From Candidatus Latescibacterota bacterium (GTDB lineage Bacteria > Latescibacterota > UBA2968 > UBA8231), in assembly GCA_965217585.1 (NCBI GenBank), contig OZ244561.1, forward strand, positions 5,728,001 to 5,792,000: a stretch of DNA of 64,000 nucleotides, read 5' to 3'. The position numbers and the translations under genes are program-made. Positions 4,495-15,152 of this stretch are shown here, one piece after another (the stretch's first letter is position 1; each line of letters starts with the position of its first letter). The notes under the pieces were generated by a model. That model searched no databases and had not been told where the DNA came from. It was given only the letters and a program-made list of their open reading frames with translations.

Positions 4495-6363
4495 ATGACA
4501 GACATAACAGAATTATACGATATCCCGGCCGTGTTACGCGCCATCCGCTCCCGCCTCGACCTCACTCAAGAGCAGCTCGCCGAGCGGATCGGCGTCTCCT
4601 TCGCTAGCATCAACCGTTGGGAGGGCGGCGCGATCAAGCCGCAGAAGGCAGCACAGGAGGCCATCGCCGCACTCGCTATCCAAGCGGGCGTCGATATAAT
4701 GGAGTTGGCTGCCGAGCCAACCGAAGCCGCCGTGCGCGTGACGCGGCGACGGAAAGGCAAAGGCCGTGCGGCCGTGCCTTCGACCAAGCCGATGGAGCAG
4801 ATGCTGTGGGATGCGGCCTGCTCCATCCGCGGCGAGAAGGACGCGGCAAAATTCAAGGATTACCTGCTGCCGCTCCTATTCCTCAAGCGGCTGTCCGATG
4901 TGTTCGACGACGAGATCGAACGGCTAGTCGAGGAATACGGCGAACGAGACATCGCGCTGGAAATCGCCGAGGGCGATCACGCACTGTTGCGTTTCTACCT
5001 GCCCCCGGAAGCGCGCTGGGGCGTCATCAGCGGTCGCGACAGTTATGAGTGGCCGCTCGACGACCAAGGGCGGAGCACGCAGCCGAGGGACATCGGCGAG
5101 CATCTGACAAAGGCGGTGCGGGCGGTCGCGCGGCAGAATCCCTCGCTTTCGGGCGTTATCGACTTTGTCGATTTCGCCTCCGAGCGCAATGGCGAGCGCG
5201 ACATCAACCCGGCCAAGCTCGCCGCAGTCATCGAGACCTTTTCAGATCCCCGCTATAGGCTCGGCCTCGCCGACGTGCAACCCGACTTCCTTGGCCGCGC
5301 CTACGAGTATCTGCTGCGCAAGTTCGCCGAAGGTTCCGGCCAGAGCGCGGGCGAGTTCTTCACCCCTACCGAGGTCGGTTTCCTCATGGCGCACATCATG
5401 CGCCCGAGGCCCGGCGAGGATTGCCACGACTACGCCTGCGGCTCGGCTGGCCTGCTGGTCAAGCTCGAACTCGTCGCCCGCGAACTCGACCCCACTAGCC
5501 GCGTGCCGCTCAAGCTCTACGGCCAGGAACTGCAAGCCGAGAGCTACGCCGTCGCCCAAATGAACGGGATCATCCACGACATGGAGGTGGAGATCGAACG
5601 CGGCGACACCATGATCAACCCCAAGTTCAAGACCGCGACCGGCCAGATCGCCACCCATGACATCGTGGTGGCCAATCCCATGTGGAATCAGCCGTTTAGC
5701 CCGGAACTCTTCGCCAATGACCCATTCGACCGCTTCCGCACCCAAGGTGGCGTCACCACAGGCAAGGGCGACTGGGCTTGGCTCCAGCACACGCTCGCCT
5801 GCCTGAACGAGCGCGGGCGGGCTGCGGTGGTGCTCGACACTGGTGCAGTGACGCGAGGCTCGGGTGCCAAGCACGAGGACCGAGAGCGCAACATCCGCAA
5901 ATGGTTCGTGGACCGCGACCTAATTGACGGGGTGATTCTATTGCCAGACAACCTTTTCTATAACACCAGCGCCGCCGGCGTAATCATGGTGCTGTCGAAA
6001 CGCAAGCCAGAGGCGCGGCAGGACAAGATCGTATTGCTCAACGCCAGTCGGCGCGTGGGCAAGGGACGGCCCAAGAATTTCATCCTGGAGGAGGATATTC
6101 GTCTGATTGCGGCGGCGTTTTTGAAGGGGGAGCCGGTGGAGGGGGAGGTTGCGGTGATTACGCGGGAGCAGGCGGAGGAAGCGGATTATAACTTGAGTCC
6201 GAGCCGATGGGTTTTAGGACTAGAAAACAAGGAAGTGTCTTCTGTCAGCGACCTAATTAACGAACTCGCGACGTTGTCGAGGGAACAAGCCGAGCATGAC
6301 GAAAAGCTACTCACACTCTTGAAGCCGCTAACTGATGGAAAGCTCAATGTCGTCGCCGATTGA
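4495..6363 (+). CDS. hsdM: Type I R-M methyltransferase subunit with N-terminal XRE-type HTH
   Basis: [24 protein letters not shown]; Hsd[31 protein letters not shown], motif I DYACGSAG, motif [15 protein letters not shown]. Confidence 0.92.
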
Positions 6364-7537
6364 ATGGGCACAGTGTCGCTTGGGTGAAGTAACGGTTCCC
6401 ACATCAACGTGGAGCCCTCGCCGCGATCCCCGTCCATCAATCCGTTACATCGACGTTTCGGCCATTTCGCGGGATGAACTCAGGATCGTCTCCGAGACAA
6501 CATACTCGGCGGACAATGCCCCGAGCCGGGCGCGCAAAATCGTCGAGACCGGAGACACGATTTTCGCGACGGTCCGCCCCACGCTACGGCGGATTGCACA
6601 GATACCGACGTCTCTGGATGGTGAAATAGTCTCTACGGCCTTTTGTGTCCTGCGACCCGACCCCCAAGCGATTGACGCGGATTTTCTCTACTTCGCCACA
6701 CAGCTTGAGTCCGTGATGGAGGGCATCGCCTCAATGGAGTCGGGGGCAAGCTATCCGGCGGTGCGGGATGTTGACGTTCTGGATCAAGTAGTTCCACTCC
6801 CACCTTTGCCTGAGCAACGGGAAATTGCTGCTGTCCTCAATACCATACGCAGAGCTTTGCTTCATCAAACCCAATGTGAAGCGAATGCGACGGCTCTCAA
6901 GCGCGCCGCGATGCAGGAGCTATTTACGCACGGTCTGCGGGGCGAGGCGCGGAAGGAAACCGAGATTGGGCCTGTGCCGGAGAGTTGGTCGCTGGTTCCG
7001 TTTGCTAAAACCGCTTTGCTCCAGCGAGGCTTTGATCTATCGGTATCCCATAGACGCAATGGAGACATTCCCGTGTTTGGCTCAAATGGGATCGTAGGAT
7101 ACCACGATCAGCAGCCAGCCTGTATTCCCATTCCTGGCGTGATGGTTGGTCGAAGTGGAAGCGTCGGAAAGGTATCGTTTTCAGCAGGTCCATACTGGCC
7201 ACTCAATACGACCTTGTTTGCCACTGACTTTTTTGGCAACGATGAAAGTTTTATTGCTTACTTTCTCGATCAATTCGACTTCTCTAGGTTTTCTTCAGGT
7301 GTAAGTGTTCCCACCCTCAACAGAAATTCTTTCGCTAACGTCCCCGTTGCAGTGCCACCTGTCGACGAACAACTCGAGATCGTCGCCATCCTCGACGCCA
7401 TTGACCGCAAAATTGACCTGCACCGAAGGAAACGGGTGGTGCTCGACGATTTGTTTAAGGCGCTGCTGCACAAGCTGATGACGAGAAGGATTCTGGTTGC
7501 CGATCTCGATTTATCCTATGACTACACAAGGAAGTAA
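6335..7537 (+). CDS. hsdS: Type I R-M specificity subunit
   Basis: Two target recognition domains with conserved repeats [12 protein letters not shown] and [11 protein letters not shown], and central linker [12 protein letters not shown]. Confidence 0.92.
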
Positions 7538-14806: not shown

Positions 14807-15152
14807 CGAACGACGCAAGGTCATGCGCGAGCGCGTCGCATCTTGGGCACAGCGGCTGAACGTCCAGCCACGGCAGGTACGCGTGCAGCGCATGACGCGC
14901 AAGTGGGGTTCGTGTTCGACCGCGGGCGTCGTCACCCTCGCCGCCGACCTCGTCGATCAGGACTTAGGCTTTCAAGACTTCGTCATTGTCCACGAGCTGC
15001 TGCACCTGCGCGTGCCCAATCACGGCAAGCTCTTCAAAGCCTTGCTGACGGCTCACGTGCCCGCTTGGCAAACATACGCCACAGCACGCACTGCTCAGCG
15101 CACCAACGCCAAGCGCCCCACCGCGACAAACGAATCCGCCACCAAGCGATAA
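14793..15152 (+). CDS. M48/YgjP-like (DUF45) zinc metallopeptidase, short form
   Basis: MTRKWGSCS and VIVHELLHL (HExxH); usual position after hsdR. The tail overlaps the convergent M6 gene by 58 nt. Confidence 0.82.

Follow-up and report, generated by a model that had tools for sequence, protein, structure and literature searches.

Does an Argonaute gene that is followed by SIR2 and AIPR genes and lies between hsdS and hsdR of a type I restriction-modification (R-M) operon form a composite immune system with the restriction enzyme, or are these genes cargo that acts on its own? The question is raised by positions 4495-15152 of a 64,000-nt stretch of contig OZ244561.1 from a Candidatus Latescibacterota bacterium (hereafter the window; all positions are counted in it). 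A first-pass annotation had favoured a composite, in which HsdR products would supply guides or triggers to the prokaryotic Argonaute (pAgo), or pAgo and SIR2 would back up R-M when it is inhibited. We arrive at a different reading, to which we assign a probability of about 0.8: the region is a type I R-M operon with a cargo bay, its cargo genes are independent defences, the Argonaute-SIR2 pair has been disabled by a deletion, and AIPR is a separate cassette. Genes were read from the open reading frame (ORF) map and then from Pfam and PADLOC profile scans, and they make up a single plus-strand run:

4457-4485, plus strand: promoter TTGACA-17-TATAAT, 12/12 consensus positions, with an upstream TG; the -10 element ends 9 nt before the hsdM ATG
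4495-6363, plus strand: hsdM with an N-terminal XRE-type helix-turn-helix (HTH), appears intact (HsdM_N; N6_Mtase, 9e-74; HTH_3/HTH_31)
6335-7537, plus strand: hsdS with two target-recognition domains (Methylase_S, two stretches)
7542-8987, plus strand: truncated long-B-type Argonaute gene, residues 1-481 of ~633 (Piwi; PADLOC pAgo_II, E 3.4e-127)
8971-10065 (ORF from TTG 8917), plus strand: SIR2_2 (bAgaS-like) gene without its own ATG and ~8 N-terminal codons (Pfam SIR2_2, 1.4e-11; PADLOC Aga_SIR2 class II, E 1.3e-121)
8983-8989, plus strand: deletion junction, 484 nt missing relative to intact alleles, 7 nt aligning on both sides (DNA comparison and public contigs)
10180-11859, plus strand: AIPR/AbiU-like abortive-infection gene, apparently intact (AIPR PF10592, 3.4e-39, residues 241-482; PADLOC AbiU, 9.9e-46, 41-521 of 559)
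11870-14806, plus strand: hsdR, 978 aa, apparently intact (HSDR_N, SWI2_SNF2, T1R_D3 and T1RH_C)
14793-15152, plus strand: YgjP-like ('M48') zinc peptidase, 119 aa, with HELLH (Pfam, 1.7e-26)

In much of what it saw, the first-pass annotation was right. The ORFs lie where it placed them, all on the plus strand, and their family assignments hold in Pfam and PADLOC; the pAgo ATG at 7542 does sit 4 nt past the hsdS stop at 7537, and the single consensus promoter and the diagnostic Argonaute residues are as described. It went astray on the completeness of pAgo, on the starts of SIR2 and hsdR, and on AIPR as part of a module.

A deletion shared by the Argonaute and SIR2 genes

The pAgo gene at 7542-8987 had been placed in the right family and taken as complete. 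Its ORF of 481 aa is a truncation of a protein that has about 633 aa in homologues: 114 of the 120 best database matches are 627-640 aa long, and the remaining six have 493, 516, 560, 595, 605 and 660 aa, two of the short ones coming from contigs of <2.6 kb. The window protein covers positions 2-470 of 617 in the PADLOC profile and 14-140 of 302 in Pfam Piwi. Homologue P0004 is 98% identical over window residues 1-481 and then continues for 152 residues more. The C-terminal block with its final PWFL, at least 90% conserved among 27 sequences, is lost in the window. What remains is N/L1/L2/MID and the first four PIWI strands; about half of PIWI, which in the AlphaFold2 (AF2) model of the full-length homologue comprises the four strands and three helices after strand 468-473, is gone. 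By tblastn the match extends to residue 633 in 79 of the 80 genome loci of the family, and with P0004 as query neither a second pAgo copy nor the missing C-terminus was found elsewhere in the 7.32-Mb genome.

Comparison at the DNA level locates the loss. Window 7362-9009 corresponds to 9821-11466 of L014, an intact relative and the closest named locus, and window 8984-10057 to L014 11927-13000, leaving a gap of 486 nt relative to L014. The deleted DNA held pAgo codons 482-633 with the stop, plus the SIR2 ATG and about 8 codons, and the TGA at 8985-8987 that now closes the pAgo ORF falls within the junction. The 7 nt that fit both sides suggest that the deletion arose by microhomology.

Is the deletion real? 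Contigs of four public runs from four studies (X1, X4, X8 and X9) were aligned to 7000-10500. Record 6 of X1 spans the junction over 8131-9747, 1617 nt, with 0 differences from the window, and X1 may be the sample of origin; record 28 of X9 (8705-10174) spans it in the same form. Two further studies provide the intact form: record 9 of X4 and record 20 of X8 have an additional 484 nt at 8983-8989. With two studies showing the deleted form and another two the intact one, we regard the difference as a natural polymorphism and not an assembly error. Judged from its sequence, the Argonaute-SIR2 pair of the window is a fresh pseudogene pair, disabled by the deletion.

A different route of decay is seen at L011 (11917-15296), where pAgo is intact, SIR2 stops after about 240 codons, and a trio of TIR, SLOG and ThsB-like TIR genes follows.

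Identity of the intact pair

Then, what was the pair before it was broken? The 27 aligned family members show no variation at residues Y343, K347, Q358 and K385, nor at G404 and G406 in the GIG; we take these to be the equivalents of the RsAgo residues. The first-pass annotation had named both the Y-K-Q-K 5'-phosphate pocket and the GIG, and both stand. The first position of the catalytic tetrad was the one examined, and there GIG takes the place of the first catalytic Asp. An AF2 model of P0004 (alignment A1; pLDDT 82.3, pTM 0.76) found RsAgo chains as its top Foldseek matches in the PDB (6d8p_B, E 2.8e-25, TMq 0.68), and in it about 200 N-terminal residues precede MID. By sequence, the best solved relative was EcAgo (E 2.1e-5). 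The expected MID-PIWI fold is thus borne out for the family by a full-length homologue, the window ORF itself being incomplete.

The SIR2 gene is the next gene after pAgo in 79 of the 80 related loci; the exception, L017, ends 296 nt past the pAgo match. The protein has about 365 aa and matches the class II PADLOC model end to end (4-341 of 343), and the class I SIR2-PNTD model is matched weakly, with E 1.2e-4 over 36 residues. Its window translation contains GAGAS, SLNYD and KLHGS, which are presumably NAD-site motifs. By PADLOC models, fold, domain content and gene order the intact relatives match BPAS systems, with a long-B pAgo predicted to be catalytically dead beside a predicted SIR2 NADase.

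The first-pass annotation had stated that inactive long-B-type pAgos act with separately encoded SIR2 proteins, and this is the published BPAS arrangement (Song et al. 2023, PMC10620215). GbBPAS depletes NAD+ and kills cells given a plasmid with a CloDF13 origin, and it does so in E. coli without Hsd partners. Without its pAgo, the SIR2 protein bAgaS lowers viability by a factor of about 10^4; the two proteins co-purify. EcAgo (of the BPAN type), the long-B pAgo that was tested for guides, binds ssDNA through 5'-phosphorylated RNA guides taken from the transcriptome (PMC10620215).

A hypervariable cargo bay between hsdS and hsdR

The HsdR family of the window occurs in 39 of 168 genomes of the phylum. 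Regions were fetched from 32 of the 38 other genomes, the six left out (G039, G040, G051, G118, G124 and G167) having partial matches or contig ends. The distance from hsdS to hsdR varies from 795 to 10170 bp (median 4983) in the 27 of these 32 regions where both genes were located. The following cargo was counted over the 32 regions, with Pfam run on one representative per cluster:

MNT: 11 loci
Schlafen AlbA_2-HATPase_c_4: 10 loci
HepT: 7 loci
STAND NTPases: 6 loci
DUF3800: 5 loci
unnamed protein (cluster k6): 5 loci
AIPR: 4 loci
TIR-SLOG-ThsB trio: 4 loci
AAA_15 ATPases: 4 loci
pAgo-SIR2: 1 locus (L120, arranged as L014)

The slot is a hypervariable cargo bay with at least 10 alternative defence cargos, and pAgo-SIR2 occupies it in one of 32 relatives, plus the window.

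The edges of the bay are sharp. Similarity to other operons ends at window 7482-7485, in the 3' end of hsdS, in 24 of the 31 loci with a match, so the final 54 nt of hsdS (7484-7537) already belong to the variable region, and it resumes exactly at the hsdR start codon, 11870. Within the bay, the AIPR cassette has its own left boundary at 10145. Loose ends of metagenome contigs coincide with these boundaries, lying at 7480-7485 in each of the four runs and at 10145 in X1, X8 and X9. The boundaries suggest that strains swap cargo together with the hsdS tail, the probable route being recombination within the conserved 3' part of hsdS and within hsdR. No integron-like inter-cassette repeat was shared when the junction stretches of the window were compared by blastn-short with the 32 oriented loci; this search returned only the conserved hsdS end, 56 nt 5' of AIPR, and the hsdR start.

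The first-pass annotation had joined AIPR to the pair as an Argonaute-SIR2-AIPR module. We rejected such a three-gene module: AIPR follows SIR2 in just 2 of the 80 loci (L005 and L011), it stands without pAgo in 4 of the 32 Hsd operons, and it has the separate boundary at 10145. At L017 an AIPR of 26% identity sits upstream.

Frequency of embedding

A survey of gene neighbourhoods had been proposed by the first-pass annotation, and it shows that the architecture recurs. It covered 80 genome loci of the pAgo family, with neighbours within 8 kb clustered, and in 12 of them the pair lies inside a type I operon. Nine of these loci (L002, L003, L004, L005, L011, L012, L014, L020 and L048) share the Hsd family of the window at 71-91% identity; L120, which equals L014 in arrangement and identities, was counted once with it. 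The sister pair L076 and L058 is embedded in an unrelated Hsd family (~25% identity). At L065 (5415-14421) an EcoEI-type system holds a distant pAgo-SIR2 (35% identity) in its hsdS-hsdM interval, and an HD-CE gene follows downstream. These make at least three independent Hsd contexts and two slot positions, hsdS-hsdR and, in L065, hsdS-hsdM. The other 68 loci are not in a type I operon, and six of those are on contigs of <7.1 kb, which are unable to show embedding.

How stable is the association? A quick IQ-TREE phylogeny of pAgo from 36 of the 80 loci and the window groups the nine embedded loci and the window in a single clade of 21 rows (SH-aLRT support 100%). Within this clade embedded members alternate with non-embedded ones and require at least five changes of state, a count that leaves out L016 and L017, whose contigs are too short. 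The nine-locus composite operon, with Hsd and pAgo at 65-93% identity, is found in metagenome-assembled genomes labelled Binatia, Nitrospira, Acidobacteriota, Chloroflexota, Gemmatimonadota and Latescibacterota. A near-identical operon under six phylum labels suggests transfer of the whole cassette between phyla that share habitats.

The commonest neighbour families of the pair are HsdM (11 loci), HsdR (11) and HsdS (9), followed by type IIG/Eco57I-like, type III, DUF1156 and PLD-SNF2 families. An R-M-type neighbour is thus present in at least 32 of the 80 loci; this is a raw count, made without matched control loci, and R-M systems are common in defence islands. The count is a lower bound, because neighbours were annotated for clusters of at least three loci, through one representative each. 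In other members of the family the pair adjoins PLD-SNF2 helicases with large Eco57I-like methylases, type IIG enzymes, type III res/mod genes or DUF1156 methylases (L018, L019, L041, L055, L079 and L081; L063-L073; L024; L028, L029 and L043). Genes for YhcG-type PDDEXK nucleases precede it in five loci.

Relation to known systems

The closest known system is BPAS, as described for GbBPAS. The likeness lies in a pAgo gene directly 5' of a SIR2_2 gene without APAZ, a replaced first catalytic Asp (GIG), a retained YKQK pocket and a fold closest to RsAgo, the long-B prototype. The window copy differs in lacking pAgo residues 482-633 and the SIR2 start; the family to which it belongs is compact at about 633 aa; and this lineage is embedded in type I R-M, whereas the published systems are described as simple operons of two to three genes. 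SPARSA also uses an inactive pAgo to control a SIR2 NADase, but its effector is a SIR2_1 domain fused to APAZ and its pAgo consists of MID-PIWI only. Neither the fusion nor such a short pAgo was found here, where the effector is of the SIR2_2 type with ~365 aa and the intact pAgo has an N-terminal lobe.

Other comparisons concern the embedding itself. The hsdS-hsdR slot is, as the first-pass annotation stated, that of PrrC, an abortive-infection gene embedded in the type IC locus EcoprrI (PMC12707154). PrrC is latent on the Hsd complex and is freed by an anti-restriction peptide, whereas we see no sign of such contact here, and the pAgo-SIR2 pair persists without hsd genes at L008. Pfam and PADLOC detected no PrrC-type domains (ABC-type ATPase and anticodon nuclease) in the slot genes of the window. 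TgvAB of V. cholerae VPI-2 is likewise a two-gene defence nested in a type I R-M operon (PMC11411939); it differs in being a type IV restriction system, not an abortive-infection system of Argonaute and NADase.

The first-pass annotation knew of no description of this exact architecture. Our searches turned up no paper in which BPAS within a type I operon is described as such, although the supplementary tables of Payne, Ryazansky and Song may list such cases. Embedding as such is described, both for TgvAB and in the preprint of Payne et al. 2024 (10.1101/2024.01.29.577857), a systematic survey of defence genes embedded in type I R-M, BREX, DISARM and Hma, whose main text, supplementary tables aside, does not name pAgo and SIR2 as embedded cargo. 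Because embedding in type I R-M and BPAS are both already known, the window is an additional, damaged example of known arrangements and not a new system.

Weighing of the alternatives

Several observations weigh against the reading of independent cargo with a disabled pair, and they are taken here with the alternatives that they favour. Three Hsd contexts that are unrelated to one another (clade A, L076/L058 and L065) contain the pair, and R-M-type genes are the commonest neighbours of the pAgo family, so that co-location may be under selection, perhaps with a functional link. On this basis the intact relatives might be a composite system in which pAgo-SIR2 fires as a guard when restriction is inhibited or is a second line fed by restriction intermediates, the window being a recently broken copy. 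The numbers of the survey (12 of 80 loci embedded, in at least three unrelated Hsd families and two slot positions; R-M-type neighbours in at least 32), the co-orientation of the genes behind a single conserved promoter and the precedent of PrrC in the same slot all fit this, as does the report by Ryazansky et al. 2018 (PMC6299218) of HsdS (og_11), a SAM methyltransferase and type III restriction enzymes among pAgo-operon proteins. The label BPAS, moreover, comes from PADLOC models, fold, domain content and gene order, not from the GbAgo/GbbAgaS sequences, and co-transcription from the hsdM promoter is deduced from gene order. Nevertheless we consider a composite unlikely. The window copy is disabled; the slot takes at least 10 unrelated cargos and holds pAgo-SIR2 in one of 32 relatives of the phylum; and 68 of the 80 loci are not embedded. 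The sister loci L002 and L008 occupy the same chromosomal site, and L008 is without hsdM-hsdS (3.25 kb; L002 3947-7199) and hsdR (3.36 kb; L002 11305-14666) while it retains an intact pAgo-SIR2, the next small gene and a peptidase remnant. The window is the reverse of L008, with hsd genes intact and the pair broken. In E. coli, where it has no Hsd partner, GbBPAS responds to a plasmid origin; the guides of EcAgo come from transcriptome RNA, not from DNA fragments. TgvAB still protects when the type I R-M genes are absent; against several phages this protection is 10- to 100-fold weaker than that of the whole cluster (PMC11411939). No evidence for coupling between Hsd and pAgo was found in this analysis. 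We are equally doubtful of the broader proposal that the BPAS family has been selected for co-expression with, and backup of, restriction systems, with the bay and its conserved promoter as the platform of coupling. Such a backup may consist, for example, in sensing invaders that escape or inhibit restriction, or single-stranded intermediates from translocating HsdR. If it were true, the hsdS-hsdR bay would be a dedicated platform that ties abortive-infection cargo to R-M expression.

The disabled state of the pair in the window has also to be weighed. Both remnants are still open frames with no further damage, and the SIR2 frame is open upstream to a TTG at 8917, with in-frame TTGs at 8917, 8947 and 8971 and a GGAG at 8908-8911. 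The resulting GGAG-N5-TTG at 8908-8919 means that some SIR2 protein could still be made, and the public contigs show the presence of alleles, not their frequency. The deleted allele could then be alive, with SIR2 made from an internal TTG as a stand-alone or differently controlled NADase, or with the 481-aa pAgo restraining SIR2; the retained GAGAS, SLNYD and KLHGS stretches, if their presumed role at the NAD site is right, and the finding of the deleted form in two studies would agree with it. We think this improbable, more so than the composite. The pAgo fragment is without the PIWI strands and helices past residue 481 and without the conserved C-terminus, and an unrestrained active SIR2 should not persist when bAgaS alone is strongly toxic; at 98% identity to an intact allele, the absence of further decay may simply reflect a recent deletion. 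As a last alternative, the short pAgo might be an artefact of assembly or sequencing: single-contig assemblies can carry local collapses, and the nearest protein relative, P0004, is intact. Such an artefact is very hard to reconcile with short-read contigs from two studies that bridge the junction, one of them without a difference in 1617 nt, beside the intact form in two others. A disabled pair in a cargo bay accounts best for these data.

Operon layout and promoter

The R-M part of the operon is complete. HsdM, HsdS with its two target-recognition domains, and HsdR with an HSDR_N nuclease, an SF2 motor and a C-terminal domain are all present at full length, and HsdM and HsdR match same-genus operons full length at 88-96% identity. 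In L112, HsdM is 96% identical over residues 1-623 of the window protein and AIPR 95% over residues 1-558. The first-pass annotation began hsdR at 11756, to which the ORF is indeed open; the start is most likely the ATG at 11870, 10 nt past the AIPR stop, because all relatives begin aligning there. The pAgo-SIR2 genes have a G+C content of 0.48-0.50 versus 0.58-0.64 in the hsd genes. Terminator-like sites within the operon number 18, compared with 12.8 +/- 3.1 in shuffled sequence, and none is convincing. The YgjP-like peptidase covers just positions 113-200 of the 207 in its Pfam model, the C-terminal half. A comparably short YgjP-like match trails hsdR across the whole Hsd family, as separate ORFs of ~117 aa in four relatives, and a short peptidase of this kind is also found at L014 17964-18317.

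The promoter had been called a single consensus promoter, and it is one. The pattern TTGAC-N17-19-TAnnnT stands just 5' of hsdM in 26 of 28 operons of the Hsd family, the window counted, and we regard it as conserved because it is kept even where the DNA farther upstream differs. In the 60 nt 5' of hsdM in L112-L143 the promoter, the short spacing to the ATG and a TGTTATAnT -10 region are kept. Going by the distance from the -10 element to the ATG, the transcript probably has little or no leader. Taken with the HTH fusion of HsdM, the conserved promoter suggests autoregulated, leaderless expression. The cargo genes share the orientation of the R-M genes and are probably co-transcribed with them from the hsdM promoter. 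RNA runs X18-X20 contain 5-13% of the sampled words.

Proposed working and significance

How might such an operon work? The HTH domain of HsdM would control transcription of the R-M operon from its conserved promoter, and the cargo genes would ride on the resulting transcript while acting independently of the Hsd proteins. In an intact BPAS, pAgo would load small 5'-phosphorylated RNA guides and sense complementary invader DNA; the guided pAgo on invader DNA would then release SIR2, which would deplete NAD+. In this scheme NAD+ depletion and the restraint of SIR2 are taken from GbBPAS and guide use from EcAgo, so it applies to the present family by analogy. The second cargo of the window, the intact AIPR/AbiU-like gene, would be an independent cassette, and cargo would be exchanged by recombination in the conserved flanks. 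The 484-bp deletion may have been tolerated because the SIR2 start went together with the pAgo C-terminus, and such joint loss would fit the published toxicity of bAgaS without its pAgo.

For the window the result is mostly corrective: an apparent new composite immune system is most probably an R-M operon with embedded independent cargo. A single event that removes both the pAgo C-terminus and the SIR2 start is the kind of loss to be expected if an Argonaute-free SIR2 is toxic, as has been reported for GbBPAS. With its sharp edges, conserved promoter and at least 10 cargos within one phylum, the modular bay of this Hsd family offers a natural system for the study of exchange and co-regulation of embedded defences. 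Intact relatives such as L014 provide material on whether BPAS, the least studied long-B system, gains from an R-M operon.

Flanking DNA

The whole operon is bracketed by a direct repeat:

3885-4123, plus strand: 239-nt direct repeat, left copy, 93% identical to 15024-15262
15024-15262, plus strand: 239-nt direct repeat, right copy, 93% identical to 3885-4123

In the left copy, which lies 5' of hsdM, the 3' end of the YgjP-like gene is duplicated along with its downstream DNA, and window 4003-4126 matches the L014 region beyond the peptidase gene. The position of the two copies suggests an older operon end or a recombination scar. No tRNA gene that could serve as an island anchor was found in the window.

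Directly 5' of the hsdM promoter, a 126-aa AAA_14 fragment (4087-4467, minus strand) looks like a shortened paralogue of the complete AAA_14-DUF4143 ATPase at 526-1683 (minus strand). Between the two, at 1990-3578 and with a G+C content of 0.48-0.50, a GmrSD_N protein (PADLOC NsnA, 2e-64; PD-T4-2_A, 2e-51) is followed by a RiboL-PSP HEPN protein, and this pair is probably another defence module just 5' of the operon. On the other side, a second patch of low G+C (0.46-0.47) at 18427-20132 (minus strand) holds a NUDIX gene and an N6_N4 DNA methylase, which possibly belong to a further R-M system. A 1132-aa beta-helix/M6-peptidase-like protein separates this patch from the operon.

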